From positions 87,378-151,377 of IMG/VR virus record IMGVR_UViG_3300036792_000267: 64,000 bases of DNA. The stretch is one strand, 5' to 3'. Position 1 is the first letter of the stretch. Each line of letters starts with the position of its first letter. Source of the DNA: a virus. The notes beneath the pieces were generated by a model. It had not been told where the DNA came from. It searched no databases and worked only from the letters and a program-made list of their open reading frames with translations. Below are positions 936-58,795 of the stretch, one piece after another. Both the position numbers and the translations under genes were made by a program.

Positions 936-3900
936 ATGCGGGACGCGGCGCAGGCTAAGGCCGCGCTGCAGGGGATGGGCGATGCGGCCAAGGCGGAGAC
1001 CGCGGCCGAGGTGGCGGGCGCGACCCAGGCCGCCGCCGCGCGCGGCAAGGGCATCACGTCCATCCAGCAGGAGACGCAGGCCCTTAACCAGCTCGCCAAC
1101 GCCGCCAAGCAGACCAACGTCCAGCTGCTCTACGGCGGCCGGAATGACATGACCCAGCACCTGAGCGACCTGGCTCAGGAGCTGAACTACACCACCTTGC
1201 TCAACCGGCAGAAGTGGCTCGGCTTCTCCTCCGTCCAGCAGGCCATGTCGTACCGCCAGCAGATGTATAACCTGGCGCTGCTGGAGAACAAAGCGCACTT
1301 CGCCGGCTACCTGACCGCGGACCAGTACCTGGGCTTCCTGCAGCGCGAGACCGCCCAGACCGCGGCGCTGTCGGCCGCCATCCGCGACCGCAGCGCGGCC
1401 ATCGGCGCCGAGACCCAGATGCTGCTCGCGCACGCCAACGCGCTGCAGGGCACCCACGCGACGGCAGGCAGCCTGGGCGAGGGCCTGAGCACGGTCAACG
1501 CCTACAACGTGGCGCTGGTCGGGCTGCCGGACACGGTGGTCACCAAGGCCGTCCTTGATGACAGCCAGGCGATGTCGCAGCTGGCTGCCTACCGCGCGGC
1601 GCTGACCTCGCTTCCCAACGCGGAGACCACCGACATCACCTCGGTTGCCACCCGGCTGGGCGGCGTCCCGCTGACGGGCGCGCGCCAGGCGGTGCCGGTC
1701 AGCGTCCGCCCCGAGATCGACTACGCCGCGATCAACAAGATGCTGTCCCAGGCGGTCGCCGGGGCGCACCCGGAGGCGCTGCGCGCGCCGCTGGCCATCA
1801 CCGGGTCGGGAGCGGCGGATTCCGCGCTGTCGGCCACGGCGGATTCCGCGCTGTCGGCCACGGCGGACGACGCCGGCGCGCTGTCGGCGTCCATGTCCGA
1901 GCTGAGCGACAAGGCGGCCATTTCCGCCGAGGCAATCAGCAAGTTCCAGGACTCCCTCGCGCTGGCCGCGGTCGACGCCCGCGCGCTGGAGCAGGGACTC
2001 GGGCGCCTGTCGGCCGCCGAGCAGCTGCTGTCTGAGGTTAACGCCCAGTTCGTGCCGCAGAAAGGCCGCAAGAAGGCGGCGGCTGCCGACCCGGCGCAGA
2101 ACCTCGCTGACCTGTACGGGCTGCAGGACGTCGCCGGCGCGCTGCGCGAGGGCGCGATCTCCGACGCGCCGCGCGGCTACCCGCTGTCCGCCCCGGGCAT
2201 GAAGATCATCCCGCCGACGCAGGCGGGAGAAGAAGACCTGTGGTCGGGGCTGTCCAAGTACATGCAGGGCGGCAAGGCCGCGGGGACTGCCACCGAGAAG
2301 GTTGCCGTCGAGGGCGGCCAGGAGGCCGAGGCGACCCTCGACAAGATCGCCGTCCAGATGGAGTGGCTGGACCATGAGGATGCCAAGCCGAAGCTAGAGC
2401 TGGAAGGCGGCCAGGAGGCGCTAGACGACGCCTACCACCTGGACGGCGTACTCGTCGGCCTGACTTACGAGCGCGCGGAGCCGGAAGTCGCCCTGCAAGG
2501 CGGAGCCGAGGCGCTGGGAGAAGTCACCGCCCTGGACGAGGGGCTGCACGAGATCCCGCACGAGACTGACACCGTCCTGGTGGTCGAGTCCTCCGGGGCC
2601 TCCAGCGAGGTCCGCGATTACAGCCGCGACATTGAGGACATCGAGCGTGAGGTGGGCACTCGCGCCGACTTCGAGGACACCGAGGCGGAGAGCGGGCTGT
2701 CGCGCTGGCTGACCGCCCTGGCTGCGGCGGTCCAGCACAAGTACGACTTCTACGCCAGCTTCAACGACGACGCGGCCAAGGCCGAGCTGGCCGGGTGGAT
2801 CAGCGAGCTTGAGGCGGCACGCGCCGAGGAGAACCGCATCACCGCCGGCATGGGCGGTGCCTCCGGTGGCGGTGGCGGCGGAGGGCCGCCTGTTCCCCCT
2901 GCTGCCGCCGGCGACGCGCCCAACCCGGATGACCGGGCGATGTGGGAGGCCGTCGCCGCCGAGATGGCCAAGGTAGACGCCCTCTTCAAGAACACCGGCC
3001 GTGACGCCGCTGCCGCCGGGGCCGCCGCGTCCAAGGCCGGCCGGGACGGCGCGCAGGCGGTCACCTCGATGGTGCTGCCGCTGACCAACGGCGCGCGCGG
3101 CTGGTTCGGCCTGCTCACCCAGGTCAACCTGTTCGGCGGCCTGCTGCCCGGCATCCTGGGCCACACCACGGCCCTGCACTTCGTCCTTGACGCGATCATC
3201 GAGACGATCGCCATCCTGCTGCCGGCCATCGTCACCATGGCAGCCGGGCTGACCGCGTTCGGCATCGCTGGCTACGACGCCGGCAAGGCGGTCTACGAGC
3301 GCCTGACGGCGATTCACACCGCGGCCGACGCCACCGGCCAGTCCATCCCGCCGCTGACCGGGAACCTGGAGAAGCTGCACGACACGGTGCGCCCGCAGGT
3401 CTGGCAGTTGTATGGCGACGCCATCACCGTCGCGGGGGCGAAGTCCGGGCTCTTCAACCAGCTGGCCATCCAGACCGGGAACGTGGTCGACCGGCTGGCC
3501 GCGCGGCTGACGGTGGACCTGGTGCAGGGTGGCCAGGGGCTGAAGACGTTCCTGTCGGTCGGCGCGGAGAACCTGGCCAAGCTCGGCACCATCTTCGACA
3601 ACCTCGGCAAGGCCCTGATGGCGTTCATCAAGGTCACCGAGGACACCCACATTGACCAGATTTTCCTGGCCATCTTCGTGGCGCTGTCCCAGTTCCTGGT
3701 GCTCATCACCAAGCTGCCCACCCCGTTGCTCGCCGCCGTGGTCGCGCTGCACGCGTTCTGGCTGTGGGGCGGCCTGCTGGCCACCGTGGTCCTGCAGATG
3801 CTCAACCCGCTGCGCTCGCTGGCACTGGCGCTGGGCGCGGTCGACGCCGCCTCAGTGAACGGCGGCCTGGCCAGCCTGACCAAGGACGCGTCGGCCTGGC

Positions 3901-6900
3901 AGCGGCTGAAGGCCGGCCTGACCGACATCGCAGCCGGGTTCGGCGCACTGCCGGCCCGGTTCAGCCTGAGCAGCAAGGCGGCCGGCGAAGCTGAAGTCGC
4001 CTTCGATGACATGGGCAACGCGCTGGTGGCTACTGACGCGGAGATGGCGGCCGGCGCCACGTCCGGCGGCGGCCTGCTCTCGGTGCTCGGGCGGCTCGTC
4101 CCGGCCGGCGGCGCTGCCGCCGGGGCTGCCGCGCTGCTGGGCAGCGCGCTGGCCGCCGCCTACGTCTACCTGGCGCTGCTGCCCGACGCGACCCAGAAGT
4201 GGATCAACTCCCTCAACCAGACGCTGGCTAAGACCACCGCGTTCACTGTGGTCTCCGCGACGGTCGGTGACCTGGCGGCGGTCACCCAGCAACTGGCAAA
4301 GGCCCAGGCCGACGGGACAGGCAACGCCTCTGAGCTGGCCGGGGCGCAGCGCGGCCTGTCCAGTGACCTGTCCAACGAGCTGGGGCACGTCGGGGCGGTG
4401 TCCAAGGCTTACGGCACCGACTTCCTGGGCGCGCTGGAGCTGCTGAACGCGGCCGGGGTGAAGACCTCCGACATCTTCTCCGCCCAGGGCAAGGCCTGGG
4501 AGGCGGACCTGCAGCAGGTCCAGGGCCTGGTGCAGGGCTACAAGGCGATGGGCCAGGGGCTGTCCGCGCTGCAGCAGGACGTCTCGGTCCAGCTGGTGAC
4601 CACCAGCGACCAGGTAACCGCCATGGGCAACCTGAACAAGGCCTGGGACGCCTGGACCAAGACCGTCGGCGGGGCCCCCAGCACGTTCATCGCCCTGGCC
4701 CAGGGCTTCGCCACGTTCAACACGGATGCCGCGGCGGCCGGGGCCGCTATGACCGGGCTGAACGCGCCCAGCCTCACCCTGCAGAGCGACTTCCAGTCCA
4801 ACTACAACAACGTCCAGGCGTTTTTCGACGCGTTCCGCAACGACCAGGCGCTCACCGGGGCGGGCGACTTCACCAAGTTCGTCAAGGACGCGGTAGCCAG
4901 CCTCATCCCGATGGCGGGTGGCTCCAAGGAGGCCGCCGCCCAGATCTCCGCCCTCGCCCAGGAGGCCGGCGGGCCGGCCACGACCAACATCAAGACGCTG
5001 CAGCAGTGGGTCGGCAACATCAAGGACCCGCTGCTGCAGATGTATAAGGCCAGCAATGACGCAGCGATCGGGGCCTCAAGCCTGAGCCAGGACGCGGCCC
5101 GGCTGACCTCCACCCTGCAGCAGCAGCTCAACCCGGCCATGGCATCGGCCATCTTCAACGCCCACGGCGGCCAGGCCGTCTTCAACGCGTTCGCCGACGC
5201 CCTGGCCAAGGGCGGGCCGAGCAGCGGCGCGACCATCACCGCGGCGCACAACGTGGCCCGCGAGCTGCTGGCGGTGTCCGGCTCCAGCGCTAACGCCAAG
5301 GCGAACTTCGTCGGGTTCACCGAGGCGATGGGGCTGAGCGCCAAGCAGGCTAACGCCCTGTGGGCCCAGGTCACCAAGATCCCGGCCAACGCCAGGACCA
5401 CCTACACCCTGGACGCGGAGCAGGCGCTGCAGAAGGCGGAAAAGCTCTCCGCGGAGCTGCCGCACCTGACCGGCCAGAAGAAGCTCCAGGTTGAGGCAGA
5501 GGTCAAGGACCTGCAGTTGCAGGCCATGAACGACAAGCTCAAGGCCGCCAAGGGGGACGTCAGCGACCTCAACAACGCGAGCCTGAGCAAGCTGCGCGGC
5601 CAGCTCGCGTCCACCGCCGGCTCTGCGGCCGACCTCGTCAAGCCCGGCGAAGTCGACACCATCCTCAAGTCGTTCAAGGACGGCACGTTCTACGAGGTCA
5701 CGTTCCTGGCGTGGATTCCGCAGGTCCAGCGCGCCCTGAACGTGGTGAACCACGATGTCGGGCAGTTTTTCGCTCATGACATCCCGGTGGCGTTCGGCGT
5801 CACCAGCCACGCCTTCGAGGCGGCGTGGGACGGGATGGTCAACTGGTTCACCCAGTCGGTGCCGCACGGGCTGGAGACGGCCTGGGGCACCGTGTCGTCG
5901 TTCTTCGACAAGGCGTTCACCCACGACATCCCCGCGGCGTGGGACTCCGCCTGGGGCACCCTGGTCTCCCCGGTCACTCACGCGTTCGATGACGTGAAAA
6001 CCTGGGTCTCCTCCAATTTCGACACCTGGTGGAAGACCCATGGCCAGGGCGTCATGGCCATCTGGGACACCTTGTGGGGGGAGATCTCCGGGGCGGCCAT
6101 CAAGGCGTTCGACCTGGTAGAGACCGGGGCCACCGGCTTCCGGCACGTCCTCACCGCCATCTTCACCAGCGGCCCCGTCAAGCAGGTCTGGTCCGGGTTC
6201 TCCGGTGCAGCCGCCGACACCTGGCATTTCATCGAGTCCCTGGCCACTGCCGCCTGGCAGATGGCGGTCGCCGGCGCGCGGGCCACCTGGAACGAGGTCG
6301 CCGCGCTAGGCAAGGCGGCCTGGGACCTGGTGGTCGCGGCGGCCAGGGCTGCCTGGGACATCATCTGGGCCCTGATCGGCGCCGAGGTCAAGTCCGCGGC
6401 AGCCATCGCGACCGCGTCGTTCAAGGTGCTGTGGGACCAGGTGGTCGCGCTGGCCAAGGTCGGCTGGGACACCATCGTCCTGATCATCAACGAGGTCATT
6501 GACCTCTTCACCGGGCACTGGGCCACGGCGTGGAAGGACCTGCAGGCGTACGGCATCCAGGTGTGGAACGCCGTCAAGACAGCCGGCATCCAGACGTGGA
6601 ACGCGATCTCGACTGCGGCGACCCAGGTGTGGAACGCGATCTGGAACGCCGTCAAGACGGCTGCCACCCAGACCTGGAACGCGTTCAAGACCGGCGGCCA
6701 GCAGGCGTGGTCCGCGATCTGGCACTCGCTGCAGGCCACGTTCATCAACCCGCTGGCGGCTTTCTTCACCTCCACCGTGCCCAAGTGGTGGGACAGCTTC
6801 GCGAACTTCGCGTCCTCTACCTGGACCAAGGTGTGGTCCGGCTTCCAGAAGAACGTCCTGCAGCCGATCGAGGGCTTCTTCACCTCGACACTGCCCAACG

Positions 6901-9212
6901 CCATGTGGAACTCCCTCAAGGGCGGGATTGACCACGTAATCTCCGGGCTGAACACGGTCATCGGCTGGATCAACGCGGTGACTTCGGTCGTGGGCGTGCA
7001 CATCTCCCCGATCTCGATGCTCGCGGCCGGCGGCGTGGCCCCGCAGCGGATGGCGCACGGCAGCGTGCCGGGGACGGGCGACGAGGACGGCACGCACATC
7101 ATCGCGATGGGCGGGGAGTACATCCTGCGCAAGCCCGCCAGGATGGCCCTGCAGGCCGCCTACGGGCCCCAGTTCCTCGATGAGCTGAACCAGGCGGACT
7201 CCTGGCTGGGCTCGGGCTCGCGCGGCAGCACGGCCACCCAGCAGCGCCGTCCGGGCCGGTACGCGTCCGGTGGCATCCCGGTCATCTCCGACATCGGCAA
7301 CTGGCTGGGCGACGCGGGCAGCGCCGTCGCCGGGGCCGCCTCCTCCGTCTGGCACGGCGTCGCCGACGCGGCCGGCGAGGTCGCCAAGTTCGGGGAGAAG
7401 GCCGTCTTCGACGCCATGTGGTCGGTCTCCGGCGCCCCGGCGGAGAAGGCGATGGAGGCGCTGGGCACGCCCGGTGACATGGGCGCGGCGTGGCTGCAGA
7501 CCATCCACAACGGGGTGGAGAACTACGTCACCGCCCAGACCGCCAAGGCGCAGGCGTCCAGCAAGTCGACCGGCTCCATCACCGGCGCCGGGGTGTCCAA
7601 CTCCTCGGCCTACGCGGCCCTGCAGTCGGCGGCGGCCAAGAAGGGCTGGACCGGGGCCCAGTGGGCCGCGCTCAACGACGTGGAGATGGCCGAGGCAGGC
7701 TACAGCCTCACCGCCACCAACCCGAGCAGCGGCGCGTACGGCATGGCCCAGTTTATTAACGGACCGGGAGAGTACGCACAGTACGGCGGTAATTCGACAA
7801 CAGCAGCGGGACAAGCGGTAGCGATGGTAAATTACATCGCACAAAGATACGGAAATCCAGAGAGCGCATGGGCTCATGAGGTCGCGTACCACTGGTATGC
7901 CGCAGGCGGGCCGGTCATCGACGCCATCCGCGCCGTCACCGGCAACGTCAACGAGCAGGAGGCGATGGCCCTCGGCTCGTGGCTGCTGACCAGGATGAAC
8001 CCGGCGGGTACCGCGCCGCACTACAGCGAGTCCGGGGCCTGGCTGATTAACACCGCCAAGAACAAGGCCGTCACCCAGACGCAGGCGCTCAACGCCAACA
8101 ACGCTGCCCGGTACCTCGCGCCGTACTACGCCAAGGCCATCCTCGGGTCCACCCCGGCGTCGTGGAAGGCGACCCCGGCGACCGCCGCACTCAAGGCCGA
8201 CGCCGCCGTGGCCGCCGCTACCGGCACGCACTGGTCCACCCCGTCGGCCGCCACCCTCGCAGCCGGGTGGAACGCCGTGTCGACCGACCTGGGCCCGGCC
8301 GTCAAGCAGGTCACAGCGGCGGCCAGCACCAGTGACACCGCCGCCTACCAGGCTGCTGCCGCGCAGCTGTACCCCGACTGGGAGGGCGCGCTCAACCCCT
8401 GGAAGACGCTGAGCGCGCTCCACCAGCCCAAGGGCGTATCGGCCCCGGACTGGGCGTCGTGGCTGGCCCAGCGCGCCGTCATCGCCAACCGGGTGAGCGT
8501 GGCCGGCAGCTACGTCGCGCCGCTGTTCGATGACCTGAAAGTCAACCCGCAGGAGCTGACCGCGGCCATGTGGTCGCACACCGACTCCAGCGTGCGGCGC
8601 TGGCAGGCGGCGATGGACGTGGCCGGCTGGGCCAAGTCCAAGGAGCCGGCGCTCTACAGCCCGATCCAGTCCAACCTGGCCAAGCTGGAGCCCGAGATCG
8701 TCAAGGCGGGCAACGCGTGGATCAACGTCTGGGGCACCACCCATACCCCGCCGCCGGGCGGAGGAGGCGGGTCCTCCGGCGGCGGAGGCGGAGGCACGAT
8801 CGGCCCCGGCAGCGGCCCTGGTGGCAGCGCCGGGTCTACGGTCATCGACCTCGCCCCGCTCATCACTGGCGGCCCCAAGGTGGCCAACGCCGGGGATTAC
8901 GGCTTCAACATTGCCGCGGGCGGCGGTGTCCCCGGCAATGTCGCGGCGATGTTCTCCGGCGGCATGGCCATGGCGGCTGGCGGGGTGGTGCCCAACCTGT
9001 TCGTGCCGGGCCTGTCGGCCAACCTTTCGCGGCAGCTCACCGCCGCCACCTCCGGCCAGTTGCCGCGCACCCTGTCGGATGCGGCCGGCAACCGGGTGGG
9101 CCTGCAGGTCGAGAACCTGACGATTTCCAATCCTGTTGCCGAAAAGCCGTCTGACTCCATCACCAGAGCCAGCAACAGGCTGGCATTCCTTGGCGGGAGG
9201 GGGATGGTCTGA
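936..9212 (+). CDS. Tape measure protein with C-terminal lytic transglycosylase-like domain (true start probably upstream, ~843 or 809)
   Basis: 2758 aa, Ala-rich, W-periodic helical repeats (WNAVKTAGIQTWNAISTAATQVWNA), AAGG motifs, SLT-like NPSSGAYGMAQF...YIAQRYG; precedes tail genes. Confidence 0.92.
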   Translation: MRDAAQAKAALQGMGDAAKAETAAEVAGATQAAAARGKGITSIQQETQALNQLANAAKQTNVQLLYGGRNDMTQHLSDLAQELNYTTLLNRQKWLGFSSVQQAMSYRQQMYNLALLENKAHFAGYLTADQYLGFLQRETAQTAALSAAIRDRSAAIGAETQMLLAHANALQGTHATAGSLGEGLSTVNAYNVALVGLPDTVVTKAVLDDSQAMSQLAAYRAALTSLPNAETTDITSVATRLGGVPLTGARQAVPVSVRPEIDYAAINKMLSQAVAGAHPEALRAPLAITGSGAADSALSATADSALSATADDAGALSASMSELSDKAAISAEAISKFQDSLALAAVDARALEQGLGRLSAAEQLLSEVNAQFVPQKGRKKAAAADPAQNLADLYGLQDVAGALREGAISDAPRGYPLSAPGMKIIPPTQAGEEDLWSGLSKYMQGGKAAGTATEKVAVEGGQEAEATLDKIAVQMEWLDHEDAKPKLELEGGQEALDDAYHLDGVLVGLTYERAEPEVALQGGAEALGEVTALDEGLHEIPHETDTVLVVESSGASSEVRDYSRDIEDIEREVGTRADFEDTEAESGLSRWLTALAAAVQHKYDFYASFNDDAAKAELAGWISELEAARAEENRITAGMGGASGGGGGGGPPVPPAAAGDAPNPDDRAMWEAVAAEMAKVDALFKNTGRDAAAAGAAASKAGRDGAQAVTSMVLPLTNGARGWFGLLTQVNLFGGLLPGILGHTTALHFVLDAIIETIAILLPAIVTMAAGLTAFGIAGYDAGKAVYERLTAIHTAADATGQSIPPLTGNLEKLHDTVRPQVWQLYGDAITVAGAKSGLFNQLAIQTGNVVDRLAARLTVDLVQGGQGLKTFLSVGAENLAKLGTIFDNLGKALMAFIKVTEDTHIDQIFLAIFVALSQFLVLITKLPTPLLAAVVALHAFWLWGGLLATVVLQMLNPLRSLALALGAVDAASVNGGLASLTKDASAWQRLKAGLTDIAAGFGALPARFSLSSKAAGEAEVAFDDMGNALVATDAEMAAGATSGGGLLSVLGRLVPAGGAAAGAAALLGSALAAAYVYLALLPDATQKWINSLNQTLAKTTAFTVVSATVGDLAAVTQQLAKAQADGTGNASELAGAQRGLSSDLSNELGHVGAVSKAYGTDFLGALELLNAAGVKTSDIFSAQGKAWEADLQQVQGLVQGYKAMGQGLSALQQDVSVQLVTTSDQVTAMGNLNKAWDAWTKTVGGAPSTFIALAQGFATFNTDAAAAGAAMTGLNAPSLTLQSDFQSNYNNVQAFFDAFRNDQALTGAGDFTKFVKDAVASLIPMAGGSKEAAAQISALAQEAGGPATTNIKTLQQWVGNIKDPLLQMYKASNDAAIGASSLSQDAARLTSTLQQQLNPAMASAIFNAHGGQAVFNAFADALAKGGPSSGATITAAHNVARELLAVSGSSANAKANFVGFTEAMGLSAKQANALWAQVTKIPANARTTYTLDAEQALQKAEKLSAELPHLTGQKKLQVEAEVKDLQLQAMNDKLKAAKGDVSDLNNASLSKLRGQLASTAGSAADLVKPGEVDTILKSFKDGTFYEVTFLAWIPQVQRALNVVNHDVGQFFAHDIPVAFGVTSHAFEAAWDGMVNWFTQSVPHGLETAWGTVSSFFDKAFTHDIPAAWDSAWGTLVSPVTHAFDDVKTWVSSNFDTWWKTHGQGVMAIWDTLWGEISGAAIKAFDLVETGATGFRHVLTAIFTSGPVKQVWSGFSGAAADTWHFIESLATAAWQMAVAGARATWNEVAALGKAAWDLVVAAARAAWDIIWALIGAEVKSAAAIATASFKVLWDQVVALAKVGWDTIVLIINEVIDLFTGHWATAWKDLQAYGIQVWNAVKTAGIQTWNAISTAATQVWNAIWNAVKTAATQTWNAFKTGGQQAWSAIWHSLQATFINPLAAFFTSTVPKWWDSFANFASSTWTKVWSGFQKNVLQPIEGFFTSTLPNAMWNSLKGGIDHVISGLNTVIGWINAVTSVVGVHISPISMLAAGGVAPQRMAHGSVPGTGDEDGTHIIAMGGEYILRKPARMALQAAYGPQFLDELNQADSWLGSGSRGSTATQQRRPGRYASGGIPVISDIGNWLGDAGSAVAGAASSVWHGVADAAGEVAKFGEKAVFDAMWSVSGAPAEKAMEALGTPGDMGAAWLQTIHNGVENYVTAQTAKAQASSKSTGSITGAGVSNSSAYAALQSAAAKKGWTGAQWAALNDVEMAEAGYSLTATNPSSGAYGMAQFINGPGEYAQYGGNSTTAAGQAVAMVNYIAQRYGNPESAWAHEVAYHWYAAGGPVIDAIRAVTGNVNEQEAMALGSWLLTRMNPAGTAPHYSESGAWLINTAKNKAVTQTQALNANNAARYLAPYYAKAILGSTPASWKATPATAALKADAAVAAATGTHWSTPSAATLAAGWNAVSTDLGPAVKQVTAAASTSDTAAYQAAAAQLYPDWEGALNPWKTLSALHQPKGVSAPDWASWLAQRAVIANRVSVAGSYVAPLFDDLKVNPQELTAAMWSHTDSSVRRWQAAMDVAGWAKSKEPALYSPIQSNLAKLEPEIVKAGNAWINVWGTTHTPPPGGGGGSSGGGGGGTIGPGSGPGGSAGSTVIDLAPLITGGPKVANAGDYGFNIAAGGGVPGNVAAMFSGGMAMAAGGVVPNLFVPGLSANLSRQLTAATSGQLPRTLSDAAGNRVGLQVENLTISNPVAEKPSDSITRASNRLAFLGGRGMV
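1813..1867 (+). repeat. 24-bp in-frame tandem repeat in TMP (ADSALSAT x2)
   Basis: CGGCGGATTCCGCGCTGTCGGCCA at 1813 and 1837, plus a partial third copy. Confidence 0.85.
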
Positions 9213-12077: not shown

Positions 12078-15000
12078 GTGGCTCCCTCAGTCGTTCAGGC
12101 GCTGGCCGTTTCCAACTCCCTGACGGGCACGCTCGGCACGCCGACCACGGCAGGTAACTGCCTGGTCTACGTCATAATTACCGAGACCGGCACTAACGTC
12201 ACCATGACGGTGACGGGTGCCACCCTCGGCGGGTCGGCAGGAAACTTCGCGCAGGCGATCTCCAAGCAGTCAGGGTTCGCCAGCAGCGCCACCCAGTTCG
12301 TAGCCATCTGGGTTGACCGGAACTGCGCGGGCGGGCAGACGGCGGTGGCCGTCGCCGGGACCAACCTGAACATCGGCGCTGGTACTGACAACGGCTACGT
12401 CGTCCTGGAGATCGCTGGCCTGGACACCAGCAGCCCGGTGGACACCACGGCCCAGGCCAGCAACGCCGCCACTACGGGCACCGCCCTGTCCACCGGCTCG
12501 ACCGGCACCACGGCGCAGGCGTCTGAGATCGCGGTCGGCGGCCTGTCCGGCTTCAACTCCCTGTCCTCCTACACCAGCGGCTACACGACCAGCGGCATCT
12601 CCGGTGGATTCAACACCGCCGGGTACAAGGTCTTGTCCGCCACGGGTACCCAGTCCTTCGGGTGCAACCAGTCGGCCACCGGCCCGTGGGCCGCCGCCGT
12701 CATCACGCTGAAAGCCGCGTCCGGAACGGTCCCGGTAGCGCAGGCTGACGTCGCGGGCGCTGCTGACGTCCTGGGTGCCAGTGCCGCCGCGCCCATTGCC
12801 GACGTCGCGGGCGCGGCGGAATCGATTGTCATCACCGTCCCGGCTGCGGATACTGCGGGAGCTGCTGACGTCCTGGCCGCTAACGCAGCCGCGCCGCAGG
12901 CCGACGCGGCGGGCGCCGCGGACTCGGTGGTCATCGGGGTTCCCCCTGCTGACGCTGCGGGCGCCACGGACTCGGTGGCCATCTCCATCCCCGCCCCGCA
13001 GGCCGACGCGGCGGGCGCGGCCGACTCGCTTTCCGTCGCCGTCATCGCGCCGATGACGGATGCCGGCGGCGCGAAAGACGCCGCCGCTAACATCACCCCC
13101 ACGCCAGCCGACGCCGGCGGGGCGAAAGACGCCCTGACGGCTAACGCTGCCGTCCCGGCGAGGGATGCCGGCGGCGCAGCCGACGCCCTCGGCTACCTGG
13201 TGGGCGTCGCGCCGGGGGACGCGGCCGGCGCGACGGAAGCGGTGTCCGTTGTCGTCGGCATCACCGTGCGCGACGAGGCTGGCGCAGTTGACGCTACCGG
13301 GGTGGTGGGGGCGGGCACCGGGCCGACTGGCTTCGGGTCCGCCTTGCCGGCGTCGGTTCTCAACGCCTACACCGGGCCGGGCTACCAGGGCGGCCCGTCT
13401 GGTGCGGGGTCGATCGCCCCGAGCGCGCTGGGCAACGGCTGGGAGATCAACGTCCGGTCGGCGGCCGACTACACCACGCTGCTCGCGGTCATCCCCGGCT
13501 CGATGCTTGTGAACTGGCAGTTCGCCCGGATGCTCAACGACATCGGCTCGGGCACGGCGGTGCTCAACCAGGACGACCCGTGGTGGGAGCAGGTGACGCT
13601 GCCGGGCGGGCTGGCAACGGAGACGCTGCTTGACGACGAGTGCCTGTGGCAAGTGTGGAAAGACGGGGTGTGCCGCTTCGAGTTCTTCGGGGAGACCATC
13701 ACCGAGCAGCTGGTTGACGGCTCCGAGCAGCGCCAGGTCACCGTCACCGGGCCAGGCACGCTCACCTCGCTGAAGTGGGCCATGGTCGCCCCGCAGGGCT
13801 TCCCCGACATCGTGCTCAAGCTGGACGGCCTGCTGGACGCCTTCGATGAGGTCGACAACGCCGGCAACCCGGTGCTGGACACCAACATCTGGACCACGGC
13901 CTCGCCCGCCAGCGATGTCTACATCACGCCGATCGCGGTCATCTACAACTACCCGACCGGGGCCGGCTACGCGCTGTCCACGCTGTACCCGTCGGGCTCG
14001 CTCACCCTGTCCGCCACGCCGGGGACCACTTACCTGGGGGCCAGCCCGTACGACGCCACGGACACCCTCATCAGCGTGGAGATCTCGCCTATCGGGGTGA
14101 GCGGCAGTTCCACCGACACCACCACCCCGACCACTTACGGCACCGGGCTCGACGGGTCCGAGCTGACCCAGTTCTATATCCAGTCCAACTTCAACAGCAG
14201 CAACTACGCGATGATCGGCCTGTCCGCGACCGCCTTCTACGCCCAGCTGGGGTCCGGCGGCCAGGTGCAGACCAAGATCCTGCCTGCTTACGACACCCAG
14301 AGTCACGGCAACTGGATGATTACCGAGCAGGCCGGCTCGGGCGGCGGCCCCGGGACCTTCTACTTCTGGACGTCGACTGACGGCCAGAACTGGGTCCTCC
14401 AGTGGCAGGTAGTGCACAGCTGGGACGCCACCAACGTGACGTTCTTCGTCACTGCCACCTACTCCACGGCAGGCAAGCAGACAGTTCAGATTTCCAACCT
14501 GAACTCTAACGTCACCACCCCGAGCTACCAGGGCTCGATCTACCTGGGCGAGCCCATGATGGGGGTCTGGCTCGACCAGTTCAGCCAGGCGCAGCGGCGC
14601 GGCACCATCCCGTTCGTCACCTCCACCGTCACCGCCGCCGCCGACAGCTTCGGCCGGGCGTGGAACGACACCGAGAACGTGCAGGCCACCAACGGCACTG
14701 ACCTGTACTCGTTCCTCCAGGGCGCGACCGCGGTAGTCGACGCGGACTTCGTGATGAACCCCGGCTTCCAGCTTGTTGTGGGGGTGCCTGCCGCCGGCGA
14801 GGTCGCCGTTGGCGTGGACCGCTCGGGCTACCTCATCTTCCGCGAGGGCTATGACATCCAGGCCAGGCAGCGCACCCGCGCGCGTGACCAGATCGCCACC
14901 CTCATCGGCGGGGAGAACAGCGACGGCCACGAGATCTCGGCTTACAGCCCGGCGTTCATCACCGAGTGGGGGCAGCGCGAGGCGTGGTTCCAGACCTCGG

Positions 15001-17504
15001 CCCAGGTCGACCCGGTCTCGATGGCCTACGCCACCGCCGCCAGCCTCGCGGAGAACGAGACCGAGGTGGTCAGCTGGACGTTCCAGTTGCTGCCCAACGT
15101 GCCGGGCAAGACGGTCTTCGACAACTTCGACGTCGGCGACTGGGTGGGGCTAGAGCGCCCCGATTTCTCTGCCGTCGACACGGTGCGCGTGGTCGGCATC
15201 GCGGTGCAGTGCGACAGCTCCGGCGCCGAGACGCACGAGCTGACCTTCCAGAGCTACATCCAGTGGCTCGCCGAGCAGCTCACCTACCTGGCCAACAAGC
15301 TGGGCGGCGCGTTCGTCAACACCCTGGGCACTACGCCGGTCGCCCCGTCCAAGTACGGCACTGGCCAGGTCCCCACCTACTTCACCCCGGCCGCCACGCT
15401 GTCCGGCCTCGCCGACGTGTCCTCCACGGCGGGCACCGCCCAGGGCACCGCGCCGCTGGTCTACAACCCGGCCACCGGCCAGTACCAGCACGCCGGCTCC
15501 ACCGACCCGGTGACCGGGCAGACGATCCCGGTCACGGTGGCCACCCCGTCAGGCTCGGCCACCCTGGGCGACACCTCCGTGGTGGTCAACACCGGCAACG
15601 GCTCGACCACGGTGGGCCTGCAGGGCGACGGCACGGTGGCCACCGTCGCCACCGGGGGGTCCGCGCCGAGTGTGCCTGACGTGCCGGCCGTGGCCGGCAT
15701 CGTGCAGGGCCTGGTGGTGAGCTGGGACGGCCTGCTGTCTGGCGCGCTGCCGCTGTCCAGCTTCTCCCACGTGGCTGTTTACGTCGGCACCACCAGCGGG
15801 TTCACCCCGTCCACATCCAACCAGGCTGGCTCGCTCAGCCAGGCGGGCGCGCTGAGCGTCGGGAACCTGACCGCCGGGTCCACCTACTACGTGAAGCTGG
15901 CCGCGCTCAGCAACTCGGGTGTCTCCTCGCCCCCCACCACCGGGATTACCGGCGTGCCCGGCACGGTGCCGACCTCGCTGCTCACCGGCCAGCTGCCGGC
16001 CAGCCTGCTGGGCAACAGCGCCGGCAACGCGCTCAACCCCAACCCGTACTTCAACGGCGGGGACCTGACCGGGTGGTTCGTCACCAACGGCACGGTGAGC
16101 GCCGCCGCGCCGCCGTCGGGAGCGCCGGGCGGCGCCCAGTTCGCAGCCCAGGTCTCCTCCACGTCCGCGAACTGCCTGCTGTCAGGTTCGCCTGACCCGT
16201 TCCCGGTCACGCCCGGCCAGCCGTACGTGATGACGGCCTGGGTCTACAACCCGGGCGGGACGTCGACCACGGTGGCCATCGGCTTCAACTGGGCGTCGGG
16301 CACCACCACGGTCAGCGTCGCGCCGGGCACGTGGGTGCCGCTCACCACCGTGCAGACCTGTCCGGGCGGGGTGACCAGCGCCTACCAGGTCATCGGCCCC
16401 ACGGTTTCCGGCAAGACCATCTGGATACTGGGAGCCGTTGCCGCGGGCCAGGTGCCCGGCCAGCTCATCGCGGCGAACTCGGTGGCCGCGCAGCAGATCG
16501 CGGCGAACACCATCACCGCCGCGCAGATCGCCGCCAACACCATCACCGCAGCGCAGATCGCGGCGAACACCATCACCGCCAGCCAGATCGCCGCATCGAC
16601 CATCACCGCAGCGCAGATCCTGGCATCGACCATCACCGCCAGCCAGATCGCGGCAGGCACCATCACCGCTGCCCAGATCGCAGCGAACACCATCACCGCC
16701 AGCCAGATCGCGGCGGGCACGGTCACCGCCACCCAGATTGCGGCGGGCATCGTGCTGGCCGGGGTGGTGAACGGCACCACCATCACGGGCTCCCAGTTTG
16801 TCGCCTTCGGGAGCACCGGCGAGATCCTCGTTTACGCAGGCACGCCGGCATCAGGCAACCTCATCATGAGCGTGTCCGCCAACGCCGGCTCGGATGGCTT
16901 CTCGAACCCGTATAGCGCCGGCGTCTACGTCTACAACTCCAGTGGCGGCGCGATCGGCCTCACGGCGGCGGCCAACACCGCGCTGCAGCTGACGCCCGGC
17001 GTCACCCCGGCGGCGGTGACGGGCACCGCGCAGCTGTTCGCTAACTCCGGCGGACACGCCGTCGTGCAGGACGGCGGGGACGCCCAGGCCTACCAGATTC
17101 AGCGTCGCTCGCTGGTCGCCGGCTCTAACTCGGGGGCGCTGACTACCCCGTCCACTGTCTTCTCCACCATCTTCGGGCCGGCGCAGTACCGGGTGCACGG
17201 CCAGTGGTACGTCAACGCGACGTCCGGCGCGGTGTTCATGTGCAAGGTGATCGGCTCGGGGACCCTCGCCGGCATCGTCGGCGTCACCATCGCGGAAGGC
17301 GGCTCGTTTTCAGCCTGCGTGACAGGCGGCCCCAACTCCAACATCGTCATTGCCGCCACGCTGGGCACGGCCACCTACCTGGTCACCCTGGACGGGGTGT
17401 TCGGCCAGACGGTCACCGGCCTGGTGGACTTCCAGGCCGGGTCTAACACCGGGACCAGCCTGGTGGTGGCCCAGTACTCATTCCTGGAAGTGATGCCTGT
17501 CTAG
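12078..17504 (+). CDS. Large minor tail/tail-tip protein with repeat regions, FN3-like and carbohydrate-binding-like domains
   Basis: 1808 aa; ADxAGAxD repeats; LNDIGSG...FDVGDWV tail-hub-like core; YYVKLAA FN3-like; NPYF..W CBM-like; QIAANTITA repeats. Confidence 0.8.
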   Translation: MAPSVVQALAVSNSLTGTLGTPTTAGNCLVYVIITETGTNVTMTVTGATLGGSAGNFAQAISKQSGFASSATQFVAIWVDRNCAGGQTAVAVAGTNLNIGAGTDNGYVVLEIAGLDTSSPVDTTAQASNAATTGTALSTGSTGTTAQASEIAVGGLSGFNSLSSYTSGYTTSGISGGFNTAGYKVLSATGTQSFGCNQSATGPWAAAVITLKAASGTVPVAQADVAGAADVLGASAAAPIADVAGAAESIVITVPAADTAGAADVLAANAAAPQADAAGAADSVVIGVPPADAAGATDSVAISIPAPQADAAGAADSLSVAVIAPMTDAGGAKDAAANITPTPADAGGAKDALTANAAVPARDAGGAADALGYLVGVAPGDAAGATEAVSVVVGITVRDEAGAVDATGVVGAGTGPTGFGSALPASVLNAYTGPGYQGGPSGAGSIAPSALGNGWEINVRSAADYTTLLAVIPGSMLVNWQFARMLNDIGSGTAVLNQDDPWWEQVTLPGGLATETLLDDECLWQVWKDGVCRFEFFGETITEQLVDGSEQRQVTVTGPGTLTSLKWAMVAPQGFPDIVLKLDGLLDAFDEVDNAGNPVLDTNIWTTASPASDVYITPIAVIYNYPTGAGYALSTLYPSGSLTLSATPGTTYLGASPYDATDTLISVEISPIGVSGSSTDTTTPTTYGTGLDGSELTQFYIQSNFNSSNYAMIGLSATAFYAQLGSGGQVQTKILPAYDTQSHGNWMITEQAGSGGGPGTFYFWTSTDGQNWVLQWQVVHSWDATNVTFFVTATYSTAGKQTVQISNLNSNVTTPSYQGSIYLGEPMMGVWLDQFSQAQRRGTIPFVTSTVTAAADSFGRAWNDTENVQATNGTDLYSFLQGATAVVDADFVMNPGFQLVVGVPAAGEVAVGVDRSGYLIFREGYDIQARQRTRARDQIATLIGGENSDGHEISAYSPAFITEWGQREAWFQTSAQVDPVSMAYATAASLAENETEVVSWTFQLLPNVPGKTVFDNFDVGDWVGLERPDFSAVDTVRVVGIAVQCDSSGAETHELTFQSYIQWLAEQLTYLANKLGGAFVNTLGTTPVAPSKYGTGQVPTYFTPAATLSGLADVSSTAGTAQGTAPLVYNPATGQYQHAGSTDPVTGQTIPVTVATPSGSATLGDTSVVVNTGNGSTTVGLQGDGTVATVATGGSAPSVPDVPAVAGIVQGLVVSWDGLLSGALPLSSFSHVAVYVGTTSGFTPSTSNQAGSLSQAGALSVGNLTAGSTYYVKLAALSNSGVSSPPTTGITGVPGTVPTSLLTGQLPASLLGNSAGNALNPNPYFNGGDLTGWFVTNGTVSAAAPPSGAPGGAQFAAQVSSTSANCLLSGSPDPFPVTPGQPYVMTAWVYNPGGTSTTVAIGFNWASGTTTVSVAPGTWVPLTTVQTCPGGVTSAYQVIGPTVSGKTIWILGAVAAGQVPGQLIAANSVAAQQIAANTITAAQIAANTITAAQIAANTITASQIAASTITAAQILASTITASQIAAGTITAAQIAANTITASQIAAGTVTATQIAAGIVLAGVVNGTTITGSQFVAFGSTGEILVYAGTPASGNLIMSVSANAGSDGFSNPYSAGVYVYNSSGGAIGLTAAANTALQLTPGVTPAAVTGTAQLFANSGGHAVVQDGGDAQAYQIQRRSLVAGSNSGALTTPSTVFSTIFGPAQYRVHGQWYVNATSGAVFMCKVIGSGTLAGIVGVTIAEGGSFSACVTGGPNSNIVIAATLGTATYLVTLDGVFGQTVTGLVDFQAGSNTGTSLVVAQYSFLEVMPV
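12738..13300 (+). repeat. ~20-aa ADxAGAxD coding repeats in tail protein
   Basis: About ten copies of (A/T)D(V/A/T)AG(A/G)(A/T/K)(D/E) at ~20-residue spacing. Confidence 0.75.
16460..16752 (+). repeat. 30-bp (10-aa) QIAANTITAA coding repeats
   Basis: About nine tandem CAGATCGCGGCGAACACCATCACCGCC-like units. Confidence 0.9.
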
Positions 17505-30231: not shown

Positions 30232-30295
30232 CTTGACTGGAGTCAAGCGCTCACGTATGCTGGCAAGCACAGGCAACCGAGTGAAGGGCAGGCAC
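30232..30295 (+). promoter_or_regulatory. Cassette promoter/leader element
   Basis: CTTGACTGGAGTCAAG; TTGACT-17-TATGCT; CAGGCAACCGAG; GAAGGGCAGGCAC-GTG. Confidence 0.85.
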
Positions 30296-30529: not shown

Positions 30530-30575
30530 GAGCGGGCGCCTGCCTTCCACCCCGAGGACAGGCGCCCGCTCTTTT
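30530..30575 (+). terminator. Intrinsic terminator
   Basis: GAGCGGGCGCCTG/CAGGCGCCCGCTC stem followed by TTTT. Confidence 0.7.
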
Positions 30576-39473: not shown

Positions 39474-40247
39474 ATGCCTGATGACCCGTTCGCCGCGCTG
39501 TACGCCGAGCACCTGCCGGCCGCGCGGCGCCTGGCCCTGGCCCTGGTGCCCGCCGACGCGGCCGAGGACATCGTGGCGGAGGCGTTCACGCGGGTGCTGG
39601 CGCGGCAGCTGGCGGGCGGCGGGCCTGACGGCGCGTTCCGCCCCTACCTGCTGGCTGCGGTGCGCAACCTGGCGCGAGACTGGCTGGCCGAGCGGCGCCG
39701 CGTCGCCCCCTCGCCGATCGACCCTCGCGCGCACCGGGTGCCAGGCGCCGGCGAGCTGGTGACCGCGGCCGAGGAGGCGGCGATGACCCGCCGGGCGTTC
39801 GAGTCCCTGCCCGGCCGCTGGCGCGCGGTGCTGTGGCAGACCGAGGTGGAGGGGCGCACGCCGGGCGAGCTGGCGCAGGTCTCCGGCATGACCCCCAACG
39901 CCGTGGCGCAGCTGGCGGCGCGGGCGCGCATCGGCCTGGCGCTGGCGTGGCACCGCGAGCGGGGCACGCAGGAGCGCATCACCGGGCCGGCCCCTGCGCT
40001 GGTTCGGCTGGCGGAGCGGAAATACCGGAAGACGCTTGACACGAGTCAAGCCGATAGCTTAGACTGTGACTACAGCAAGCGGAACGGACCAGAGGGCAGG
40101 CACCCGATGTACGCAGGCGAGTACTACGCAGACGGCGACAACTACTACCCCGGCTCCGATGACGACGAGCTGAGCCCGTTCGACCAGGCGATGAGCCAGC
40201 TGGCCGTGCAGGCCGCGCGCATCGCGCAGTTCGAGCAGGGCAACTAG
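39474..40247 (+). CDS. ECF-type RNA polymerase sigma factor (reading frame runs on through the next cassette)
   Basis: FAALYAEH...AEDIVAEAF...FRPYLLAAVRNL (region 2); AFESLPGRWRAVLW...ELAQVSGMTPNAVAQLAARAR (region 4). Confidence 0.8.
   Translation: MPDDPFAALYAEHLPAARRLALALVPADAAEDIVAEAFTRVLARQLAGGGPDGAFRPYLLAAVRNLARDWLAERRRVAPSPIDPRAHRVPGAGELVTAAEEAAMTRRAFESLPGRWRAVLWQTEVEGRTPGELAQVSGMTPNAVAQLAARARIGLALAWHRERGTQERITGPAPALVRLAERKYRKTLDTSQADSLDCDYSKRNGPEGRHPMYAGEYYADGDNYYPGSDDDELSPFDQAMSQLAVQAARIAQFEQGN
40035..40106 (+). promoter_or_regulatory. Cassette promoter/leader driving the small ORF and putative ncRNA
   Basis: CTTGACACGAGTCAAG; TTGACA-18-TAGACT; AGGGCAGGCACCCG-ATG. Confidence 0.8.
40107..40247 (+). 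CDS. Small acidic protein (46 aa)
   Basis: ATG after leader motif; MYAGEYYADGDNYYPGSDDDELSPF... Confidence 0.55.
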   Translation: MYAGEYYADGDNYYPGSDDDELSPFDQAMSQLAVQAARIAQFEQGN

Positions 40248-40249
40248 GC

Positions 40250-40993
40250 CCCGGCGGGCCGCCGACAACCTAAGCCCAAGCCAGTACCTGCCTGCGGGCG
40301 GGGTGCGGACATTGGCGGTGAGGCGGCCCGGCGGACAACTCCACAGAGACTTGGGGGCAACGGGACCCTGCAAGGCCAACGCCCTGCGTTGTGTCAAGAT
40401 CGCAACTTGGCGTCCTCGCGGGCTGGGGTCGGAAACCGATGGCCGTTGTCCCCTAAAACTCCCCGGGCTGTTGTATCGAGTACCTGGCGAACGCGTGAGC
40501 GACACAGGCAGGATTAAGTTCCAGCCTTTGGCAACACCGCTACGGACCAGCGAAACACGCGGCAGCCCGGGGGTTAGGCGGAGGGTAACCCCTGGCGGTT
40601 CTGGGTTACCTGAGTGCACCCTCCGATGAACCGAAGTGGGGCCGGGAGGCTCCAGTCGGCAGGCTGTCCTCCCGGCGCCCGCGCTAAAACTCCATAGACG
40701 AGGGGTCTCGTTCGAGGCGAGGCGGTACCCAGTCCGCCTTTACCTGCACTGGACGGCTTTCCGGCTCCGGCTGGCGGCAACCTGGCGGCCCTGATGCGCT
40801 TACAGCCTGTGCCCGTGGTCATTCCGCGGTCGCGGTACTGCGGCGCGGAAAGCTGCCAGCTCAATCCATCGTGGCTGACACGTAACGCAGGGCTTGGGGT
40901 TTGTGACCCGACAGTGAGCACTGCTCCCCCTCGCGAACGCCCTAGCGGATGTCTCGGTTGCCTGCCCTGCCCCGCTAGGGCGTTCGCATTTTT
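40250..40993 (+). ncRNA. Putative large structured ncRNA (~740 nt), family unrecognised
   Basis: No credible gene across 0.75 kb in a densely coding region; at least 10 helices with G-U pairs on the + strand, GNRA-type loops, long-range 40376-40396/40876-40897 pairing, terminal hairpin plus T-tract. Confidence 0.7.
40933..40993 (+). terminator. 16-bp terminal hairpin whose 23-nt loop is antisense to the leader motif
   Basis: GCGAACGCCCTAGCGG/CCGCTAGGGCGTTCGC followed by ATTTTT. Confidence 0.8.
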
Positions 40994-40995
40994 AT

Positions 40996-41056
40996 CTTGA
41001 CTTGAGTAAAGCACATGAGTACGCTGTAGCCAGGAAACCCACCGAAGGGCAGGCAC
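40996..41056 (+). promoter_or_regulatory. Cassette promoter/leader element
   Basis: CTTGACTTGAGTAAAG; 17-TACGCT; GAAGGGCAGGCAC-ATG. Confidence 0.8.
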
Positions 41057-41470
41057 ATGGAAATTGACATCACCGCGCTGCTGGCGGTCTCCGACGACGA
41101 GAGCCCGGACCTGACCGGGCTGCTGGAGGCCGTCGAGGCCGCGAGCAGCCAGGACCAGACTGCGTGGCTGACAGACAAGGGGCAGCGCATCGCGGCCATC
41201 GTGCCGGTCGACGTCGCCGAGTACCACGATGAGATGACTCGCCGCGTGCTGACCACGCCGGCCGGTCCCCGGGTGAAGTTCCCTGAGGTCACGGTGCAGC
41301 TGAGCGGAGGGGACGGCAGTACGGGCGTCATCATGGCCAAGGTTGCCGACGCGATGGGCGCCGCCGGCGTCGACAGGCGGGACATCCGCAGCTTCCGCGA
41401 GGGCATCCTCGCCTGCGAGAGCTACGAGGCCGTTCTCGCGCTGGCTCAGCGCACGGTCAACGTCGAGTAG
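41057..41470 (+). CDS. Phd/YefM-like N-terminal domain fused to a small phage domain
   Basis: TAWLTDKGQRIAAIVPVD is Phd-like; VQLSGGDG...SYEAVL C-terminus. Confidence 0.55.
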   Translation: MEIDITALLAVSDDESPDLTGLLEAVEAASSQDQTAWLTDKGQRIAAIVPVDVAEYHDEMTRRVLTTPAGPRVKFPEVTVQLSGGDGSTGVIMAKVADAMGAAGVDRRDIRSFREGILACESYEAVLALAQRTVNVE

Positions 41471-45361: not shown

Positions 45362-45471
45362 CAGGACCCCCGGGCGAGTGACGCGCCCGGGGGTCCTGCT
45401 ATGTGCTTGACTCAAGTCAAGCCATGCACTAAGCTGGCAGTACCAGCAACCGAGCGAAGGGCAGGCACCCG
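45362..45471 (+). promoter_or_regulatory. Hairpin + cassette promoter/leader element
   Basis: CAGGACCCCCGGGCG/CGCCCGGGGGTCCTG stem; CTTGACTCAAGTCAAG at 45406; 17-TAAGCT; GCAACCGAGCGAAGGGCAGGCACCCG. Confidence 0.85.
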
Positions 45472-45714
45472 ATGCTAGTAGAACCCGGACAGCGCGACGA
45501 GTACGGCGGAGACCTCTCCAAGGTGGCGGACCTCCTGGGCGAGGACGAGGTGGGGGTGAAGGTCGACCTCGCCGAGATCGGCGACCTGGTGAAGCTCACG
45601 GTCGACTCGACCACCGTGACCGGCAGCAAGCACGTTTACCTGGACCCGATCTCCGCCGACGAGCTGGCCGACCTGCTGAAGATGCGGGCGCGGGAAGCGC
45701 GGGGTGTCCAGTGA
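45472..45714 (+). CDS. Hypothetical protein
   Basis: After leader motif. Confidence 0.65.
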   Translation: MLVEPGQRDEYGGDLSKVADLLGEDEVGVKVDLAEIGDLVKLTVDSTTVTGSKHVYLDPISADELADLLKMRAREARGVQ

Positions 45715-47337: not shown

Positions 47338-47403
47338 CTTGACTCAAGTCAAGACATGCCCTAAGCTGTGCCTGTAGGCAGGCAACCGAAGGGCAGGCAC
47401 ATC
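47338..47403 (+). promoter_or_regulatory. Cassette promoter/leader element
   Basis: CTTGACTCAAGTCAAG; 17-TAAGCT; GGCAGGCAACCGAAGGGCAGGCAC. Confidence 0.85.
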
Positions 47404-54207: not shown

Positions 54208-54277
54208 CTTGACTCAAGTCAAGTCATGGGTGTAGCCTCGCTCTTGTAGGCAGGCAACCGAGCAAGGGCAGGCACTC
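54208..54277 (+). promoter_or_regulatory. Cassette promoter/leader element (14-nt perfect complement to ncRNA loop)
   Basis: CTTGACTCAAGTCAAG; 18-TAGCCT; GGCAGGCAACCGAG(54249) and AAGGGCAGGCAC. Confidence 0.85.
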
Positions 54278-58489: not shown

Positions 58490-58795
58490 ATGAGCTACGG
58501 CAGGAACTACCGCAAGCCGACCCAAGCCGCGCGCACCACTACCGGGCGAACCGCGCTGGTCACGCCGCGGCAGATGTCCGCACTCGGCAAGATGGCAGCT
58601 GAGCACGGGTTCACCAGCGGTTCGGCGCTACTGTGCGACGTCGCGTCATGTGACGTTGCCGAGCTTGGCCGCAAGAGCCGGCCGGTAGTGCAAATGTTCG
58701 TTGACCAGGCATTCGAGCGCTACGGTCGCAACGCGCAGCCTCGCGCTTCCCGCGGCCGGTGTGAAGATGCCCCGTGCTGCGGATGCTGTGAGTAG
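58490..58795 (+). CDS. Hypothetical protein ending in RGRCEDAPCCGC
   Basis: After leader; Cys-rich C-terminal motif. Confidence 0.65.
   Translation: MSYGRNYRKPTQAARTTTGRTALVTPRQMSALGKMAAEHGFTSGSALLCDVASCDVAELGRKSRPVVQMFVDQAFERYGRNAQPRASRGRCEDAPCCGCCE

Follow-up and report, generated by a model that had tools for sequence, protein, structure and literature searches.

An uncultured soil phage encodes, next to a sigma-70-family gene, a candidate non-coding RNA that ends in a hairpin whose large loop is complementary to the leaders and ribosome-binding regions of about 30 of the phage's own non-structural genes. We propose that this hairpin is the seed loop of a trans-acting antisense RNA directed against the whole leader class, a reading that is derived from comparative sequence analysis and to which we assign a probability of about 0.5. 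The phage is represented by a 151,377-bp IMG/VR record with direct terminal repeats and a G+C content of ~68%; the window analysed here is the final 64 kb of this record. A blastn search of GenBank phages with the region returned no match, and none of them is a close relative. The window contains two ORFs of exceptional length, 2,758 and 1,808 amino acids, at positions 936-9212 and 12078-17504, and the similarity of the former to tape-measure proteins is weak and covers only 14% of its length.

The proposed targets lie on the + strand between positions 30233 and 62300, a field of 24 operator-promoter cassettes and ~30 tagged start sites. The −35 element of a cassette, TTGAC(T/A), is the left half of a palindrome, TTGAC-N4-GTCAA, and is followed after 17-18 nt by a −10 element, TAnnnT. 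The leader is ~30 nt long and consists almost wholly of two conserved boxes, the U-box (A)GGCAACCGAG and the R-box GAAGGGCAGGCAC, the latter located 0-8 nt before an ATG or GTG start. The U-box is found only with promoters, around +1 to +13, and the R-box alone also precedes promoter-less operon-internal genes (41473, 41712). The same cassette, exemplified here at 40036, 40997, 44760 and 54209, is present in 12-31 copies in each of six related phages, in what looks from the sequence like control of the whole non-structural arm by one repressor.

Allowing at most one mismatch, AGGGCAGGCA has 55 matches in the window versus 8.8 expected, and the + strand accounts for 50 of the 55. The exact + strand copies number 22 and nearly all stand just before ATG or GTG, and the four - strand near-matches other than the loop copy described below are at chance level. 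Within the final 40 kb of the genome, the + strand carries 30 relaxed R-boxes followed by a start, and there are almost none elsewhere. This count agrees with the sequence-only reading of this DNA, which had given about 30 genes. As the tag is one-way, also precedes promoter-less genes, and is confined to the non-structural arm, it points to a use at the RNA level. Its GAAGGG part is suitably spaced for what may be weak pairing with the 16S rRNA 3′ end, and the conservation of the tag extends well past GAAGGG. CCC(C)GA or a sequence close to it often separates the R-box from the start codon (32161, 34515, 40093, 45458, 48868, 51926, 58476), and with such a spacer the pairing with the loop continues past one mismatch for another four pairs.

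The hairpin comprises a 5′ arm at 40933-40948 (GCGAACGCCCTAGCGG by direct reading), a 23-nt loop at 40949-40971 (ATGTCTCGGTTGCCTGCCCTGCC) and a 3′ arm at 40972-40987 followed by the T-run ATTTTTAT at 40988-40995, all on the + strand; the positions first reported for the hairpin and its loop proved exact to the base. Its folding energy is -37.7 kcal/mol (z = -6.25 versus shuffles). The predicted unpaired probability of the loop core is ~0.55, and most of the loop is predicted to be open. The 3′ end resembles a terminator except in the size of its loop, and a terminator scan made no call there. Measured against the definition of an intrinsic terminator (a GC-rich stem, a loop of 3-8 nt and a U-tract), the stem fits and the loop, with 20-23 nt in 6/6 phages of the group, places the hairpin outside it. 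A T-run follows the hairpin in the studied phage (G000) and in its relatives G003 and G005, and is missing from G001, G002 and L195. On the - strand, no ATG, GTG or TTG occurs within ~40 nt after the loop copy, as had been stated.

The reverse complement of the loop, GGCAGGGCAGGCAACCGAGACAT, fuses the R-box and the U-box, which bears out the initial observation that the loop is antisense to both. Because both boxes are joined in the loop complement, there are two overlapping pairing registers, one at the start region and the other at the message 5′ end. The best predicted target leader (54249-54274, + strand) carries a long U-box, GGCAGGCAACCGAG, that matches the loop at 14/14 positions and is followed by an R-box, with a duplex energy of -33.5 kcal/mol. 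A second predicted target leader (47377-47399, + strand) has GGCAGGCAACCGAA, a 13/14 match, again followed by an R-box. At a predicted target ribosome-binding site (45458-45475, + strand), AGGGCAGGCACCCGA followed by TG gives a 14/15 match that reaches into the start codon, and the R-box and spacer at 40093-40107 also fit the loop complement at 14/15. All four had been listed by the sequence-only reading with these same match lengths, and the 12-nt matches that it listed besides were found at 30268 and 54726. The claim that the reverse orientation is represented by a single full copy likewise holds: the loop is the only exact - strand copy in the window and the only extended one, and the whole genome contains two further exact - strand 10-mers, both within left-arm coding DNA. 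A hairpin at 30530-30571 was considered as a second antisense copy and rejected, as its GCCTGCC is paired in an ordinary terminator stem. This hairpin is a strong terminator (-41 kcal/mol, z = -5.8) with an antisense R-box-like string, GCCTGCCTTCC, in its 5′ arm; being paired in the stem, the string is not exposed.

The mean energy of duplexes between the loop and the leaders of the same phage is -26.2 kcal/mol in G000, -25.0 kcal/mol in G002 and -29.1 kcal/mol in G003. Shuffled loops give about -15 to -17.6 kcal/mol with a standard deviation of ~2, and 0/200 shuffles reach the observed value in these three phages, the loops of which beat their own shuffles by 4-7 standard deviations. The G005 loop is only marginal, with at least one of 200 shuffles equally good. 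Loop and leaders are genuinely complementary, to an extent far above chance, and on this sequence evidence one RNA probably pairs with all tagged messages.

The gene directly 5′ of the RNA promoter (39474-40034, + strand) encodes a sigma-70-family protein with regions 2 and 4 (Pfam Sigma70_r2, E 2.9e-7, and Sigma70_r4_2), and homologues of it occupy the same position in G001, G002, G003, G005 and L195. The frame that contains it, 39474-40247, lacks its own stop codon and stays open across the promoter and the leader as far as a 47-codon ORF, with which it is in frame. A promoter scan placed the promoter of the RNA at 40036-40065 on the + strand (TTGACA, 18 nt, TAGACT), with the −35 element within an operator-like palindrome, TTGACACGAGTCAAG. 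The same palindrome variant also heads the RNA in G001, G002, G005 and L195, so that 5/6 phages have a perfect-consensus operator promoter there; the RNA promoter is of the same class as those of the proposed targets, as had been suggested. The further suggestion of feedback through a leader at 40093 has to be restricted to this genome. The R-box at 40093-40102 and the 47-codon ORF at 40107-40247 (+ strand) are found here only, and the relatives have a structured RNA domain in their place.

The remaining ~690 nt of the RNA body (40248-40932, + strand) consist of blocks conserved among relatives and a variable insert domain. The region 40248-41056 lacks the third-position G+C periodicity of the flanking genes and is therefore non-coding. 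Just 5′ of the terminal hairpin, CCCCTC (40927-40932) is able to pair with GAGGGG (40700-40705). The insert between these two elements (window 40697-40932) measures ~220 nt here and 16 nt in G005 (L144), and in indel variants from soil contigs 139-148 nt at 40747-40896 are swapped for 11-18 other letters. Searches at the Rfam gathering score found no family in the window or the five related loci, and at E values up to 10 returned sub-threshold matches to ctRNA_pGA1 and ncS035 only; the former (RF00236) scored 25.5 bits against a gathering threshold of 45 and does not qualify as a member. The covariance model of the c4/CI family (Rfam C4) had no match, whether at the gathering score or with E relaxed to 10, and no tRNA or tmRNA was found in the window or in the relatives' loci. 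The 5′ part of the G001 RNA (L123 ~1095-1125) contains a T-arm-like GCGGGTTCGAGTCCCGC, at which ARAGORN calls no tRNA or tmRNA. An internal kissing partner of the loop, GGCAGGC in a loop at 40659, was rejected, as it is not conserved in G002 or G003. The next cassette (40997-41059, + strand; TTGACT, 17 nt, TACGCT) begins 9 nt past the terminal hairpin and continues with a leader, an R-box at 41046-41055 and the ATG at 41057 of a conserved 137-aa gene.

Relatives were found by exact-pattern scans and by a search with the sigma gene. Those with the locus are four IMG/VR genomes of 125-152 kb (G001, G002, G003 and G005) and the metagenome contig L195, and all five share the order of sigma gene, promoter, non-coding RNA, hairpin, promoter and 137-aa gene. 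The contig of G006 ends before the locus. A profile search with the sigma gene added only L195-L197 as further members of the phage group, and none was added when viral contigs were scanned with the RNA core and operator patterns. The ~50%-identical sigma genes of soil metagenomes come without the operator, the tag and the RNA. A distant relative, G007 (IMGVR_UViG_3300027313_000002; L183/L184), has the same operator palindrome and a more Shine-Dalgarno-like tag, CAGGGAGGCAC; the 32 kb of it that were read contain no antisense loop. Its sigma homologue has a long extra C-terminal part, which is followed by a non-coding leader of ~330 nt.

Across the six homologous hairpins, the stem pairs are 100% canonical even though 12/17 stem positions are altered on both sides. 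The stem sequence is GCGAACGCCCTAGCGG in both G000 and G001, and CGTTGAAGCCCCGCGG, GCGAAAGCCCCCGCGG, GAGGCCCCCCGTG and GCGCGAAGCCCCGTCGG in the others. The loop is 20-23 nt long in all six phages and its core, GGT(T/AT)GCCTGCC, is invariant. Divided around GCCTGCC, the loops read ATGTCTCGGTT-GCCTGCC-CTGCC in G000, ATCTCGGTT-GCCTGCC-CTGC in G002, TAGCTCGGTT-GCCTGCC-CTGC in L195, GATTGGTT-GCCTGCC-TTTCGCA in G003 and TGCTCGGTAT-GCCTGCC-AAACTC in G005. Soil contigs display variants outside the hairpin and none inside it, apart from one contig with a different 3′ loop flank. As the stem has been rewritten many times around a fixed 11-12-nt core, selection acts on the loop sequence itself. Judged by sequence, compensatory stem changes combined with an invariant loop core are the pattern expected of a base-pairing seed. 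Being related, the six phages do not count as independent cases.

The expectation that the loop and the leaders would change together in relatives was borne out in part, with G003 and one soil variant conforming to it and G005 departing from it. In G000, G001 and G002, (A)AG precedes GGCAGGCA in the leaders and the loops pair with AG. In G003, the trinucleotides in front of GGCAGGCA are AGA (9 leaders), AAG (6) and AAA (3), with all of which the UUUCGC of its loop pairs through G-U, and one leader is matched at 14/14. The soil contig with the altered flank has a loop ending in CCTGCCCTTCAG, which lengthens the match to GAAGGGCAGG. The G005 leaders mostly have AGA where the loop has AAACUC, and pairing there is limited to the 8-nt complement of GGCAGGCA plus a bulged U-box segment. 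After removal of row and column means, cognate pairs have an advantage over non-cognate ones of only 0.6-0.9 kcal/mol. At the sequence level it is suggestive that the flank changes partly track the leaders of the same phage.

Combining these observations, we propose the following model for the action of the RNA. A + strand transcript of ~0.9 kb (~0.75 kb without the small ORF) would start at the operator-controlled sigma-70-type promoter at 40036 and would have the hairpin as its 3′-terminal element, with the 20-23-nt loop as the seed. The seed would pair in trans with the ~30-nt 5′ leaders of the non-structural gene class in one of two registers: (i) with the R-box, over the ribosome-binding site, forming 10 bp or, with a CCCGA spacer, as many as 14/15, and (ii) with the U-box at the message 5′ end, forming 11-14 bp. 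Ribosome loading would thereby be blocked, or the duplex would be cleaved, and the class would be shut down together as the RNA accumulates. As the target is a private tag and not a plain Shine-Dalgarno sequence, host messages would, in our proposal, be spared. Here we infer transcription, the strand pairing and a repressive effect; the effect may instead be activation or protection of 5′ ends. As the RNA lies next to a phage sigma gene, the two may form a switch module. In a closed loop, uninterrupted pairing can span only about one helical turn, which counts against the use of the loop as a seed.

The initial statement that no system like this has been described was too strong, as RNAIII, 6C, c4 and CI are known and an analogue in Cluster K mycobacteriophages has been published. 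In Staphylococcus aureus RNAIII and the actinobacterial 6C sRNA, C-rich hairpin loops, among them that of a terminator hairpin, base-pair to G-rich ribosome-binding regions in several messages, and no chaperone is needed. The RNA described here resembles this type in having a loop complementary to several start regions and a conserved candidate seed on a covarying helix; a promoter at 40036 and a terminator-like hairpin are predicted for it. RNAIII and 6C loops are, however, short (UCCC or C-rich) and their targets are ordinary Shine-Dalgarno-like sequences of host genes, whereas the loop here is long and its candidate target is a private tag on ~30 phage genes; furthermore, neither RNA has a sequence or Rfam relationship to ours. 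The c4 RNA of P1/P7 and the CI RNA of P4 are phage RNAs in which a loop pairs with leader sites of phage transcripts, causing a translation block and premature termination. They derive from the same kind of transcription unit as their targets, as is proposed here, but they are 70-80 nt long and act on one operon with two sites, whereas our loop ends a predicted RNA of several hundred nucleotides and faces 25-30 separate leaders. RegA of T4 is a translational repressor that occupies the start regions of a class of early messages; RegA is a protein, whereas the candidate here is an RNA that would recognise its targets by base pairing.

The start-associated sequences (SAS/ESAS) of Cluster K were described in 2011 as being in one orientation except for a single reverse copy unlinked to any gene start, and their discoverers asked whether the reader is RNA or protein (Pope et al. 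2011, PMC3203893). The role of SAS was still called unknown in papers of 2024 and 2025 (2024 Adephagia paper: PMC11373665), and the SAS papers do not discuss the reverse copy as an RNA (PMC3203893, PMC11373665). Like SAS, the tag described here is asymmetric, lies a few nucleotides before starts, extends beyond a Shine-Dalgarno sequence and is confined to the non-structural arm. SAS are 10-13 nt long and precede a dozen or more non-structural genes, a subset of which have an upstream promoter and an inverted repeat, as in our cassettes. The tags themselves are unrelated, GGGATAGGAGCCC there versus GAAGGGCAGGCAC here, and the present tag is therefore an analogue of SAS and not a member.

In Anaya, the reverse SAS copy (L275 31871-31883) is located between gp96 and gp97, in a GC-closed 10-nt loop, CCUCCUAUCC, on an outer covarying stem, and it is likewise found in a hairpin loop in Ganymede, Murucutumbu, Curiosium, Mdavu and Adephagia. 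The Adephagia hairpin occupies the gap of genes 92-93, at record positions of about 58,667-58,699. These K1 loops are an independent parallel that speaks for the proposed model. The Cluster K loop, with its 10 nt, is anti-Shine-Dalgarno-like, compared with 20-23 nt in the phage group studied here, and its hairpin is probably part of a late-operon leader, whereas ours follows a sigma gene; in Adephagia, late transcription was reported to begin in the gap with the reverse SAS copy (PMC11373665). This gap of ~385 nt near the right genome end is conserved and has covarying hairpins (Anaya L275 31683-32067, Adephagia L365 1048-1479 and 180 other Cluster K records). It is mostly unannotated, with a hypothetical protein in some records, and in K1 it holds the only reverse SAS copy. 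In Ekdilam and Unicorn, SAS are unchanged and the loop has drifted to UCCUCCUUCCCC or GGUUCUCCCUUCCC, and the antisense loop is absent from Yuna, KiSi and SirPhilip. Covariation between loop and SAS was not found in Cluster K, where SAS are identical in Anaya, Ekdilam and Unicorn and the loops differ. As the loop drifts or is lost in other K subclusters while SAS are kept, the analogous layout is dispensable there.

This dispensability also bears on other explanations of the hairpin. It could be a terminator or 3′-end stability element in which the complementarity plays no pairing role, the loop having originated from an inverted fragment of a leader cassette that was captured by repeat recombination and kept for another reason, e.g. 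protein binding. The many near-identical cassettes would be able to recombine, the hairpin sits exactly between two transcription units with a T-run in 3/6 phages, covariation with the leaders is weak and fails in G005, and the Cluster K relatives that lose the loop keep SAS. We nevertheless consider this explanation unlikely because a loop of 20-23 nt, a size kept in 6/6 phages, is far outside the usual 3-8 nt, and because the 11-12-nt core stayed unchanged while the stem was rewritten. A single-stranded-RNA-binding protein would not account for the exact coincidence of the conserved part with the complement of the motif that is commonest in the genome.

Two further alternatives retain a specific role for the loop sequence. 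In one, the loop pairs within its own transcript, either with the R-box of the next gene in read-through transcripts, masking a single start, or with the 5′ R-box-like sequence at 40093-40107 in a circle-like fold. The distance from the hairpin to the next cassette is 3-25 nt in every case, 40093-40107 fits at 14/15 as given above, and GCAGGCAA is present in the 5′ domain of G002, G003 and L197. The leader of the adjacent gene is, however, among the poorest partners of the loop, ranking 19/20 in G000 and 20/21, 12/16 and 14/20 in three other phages, with G005 (2/10) as the exception, and pairing in cis with it is disfavoured by this poor rank in four of five phages. None of the relatives has the 5′ R-box or the small ORF, and a 5′ match is lacking in G005. 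Considering that the adjacent leader is a poor partner and that a 5′ R-box of the RNA exists only in G000, pairing in trans with the cassette class is the better reading, and we regard the cis arrangement as quite improbable. In the other alternative, the boxes are double-stranded DNA sites of a phage regulator and the loop is a reversed site upstream of the 40997 promoter. The restriction of the U-box to promoters would fit such sites, and for the extended SAS repeats the Cluster K authors preferred an explanation by DNA-binding proteins (PMC3203893). This possibility appears very remote to us, given that (i) the R-box also precedes promoter-less internal genes, (ii) the orientation is one-way (50 versus 5, those five at chance level), (iii) no other promoter has such a reverse site upstream, and (iv) a covarying RNA stem around the site would be left unexplained.

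Returning to the reading of the loop as a seed that pairs in trans, we tentatively suggest, at somewhat less than even odds, that it is a general feature of actinobacterial phages with start-site tags of their own to encode a single "master" RNA, which presents the antisense of the tag in a hairpin loop and turns translation of the tagged class off or on, either at a defined stage of infection or, in lysogeny, as an RNA layer of immunity. A conserved loop that is exactly antisense to the tag is a concrete candidate for the reader of start-associated tags. If such master RNAs exist, the question of what start-associated sequences are for would be answered, with the phage described here as a large example with ~30 targets. 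As the same layout occurs in Cluster K, the idea is testable with a cultured host, phage engineering and existing RNA-seq data. If confirmed, the arrangement would in addition offer a useful template for engineering synthetic control in high-GC bacteria. For the phage itself, it would mean that a gene class has a private translation address through which a single RNA controls ~30 genes and leaves host messages untouched.
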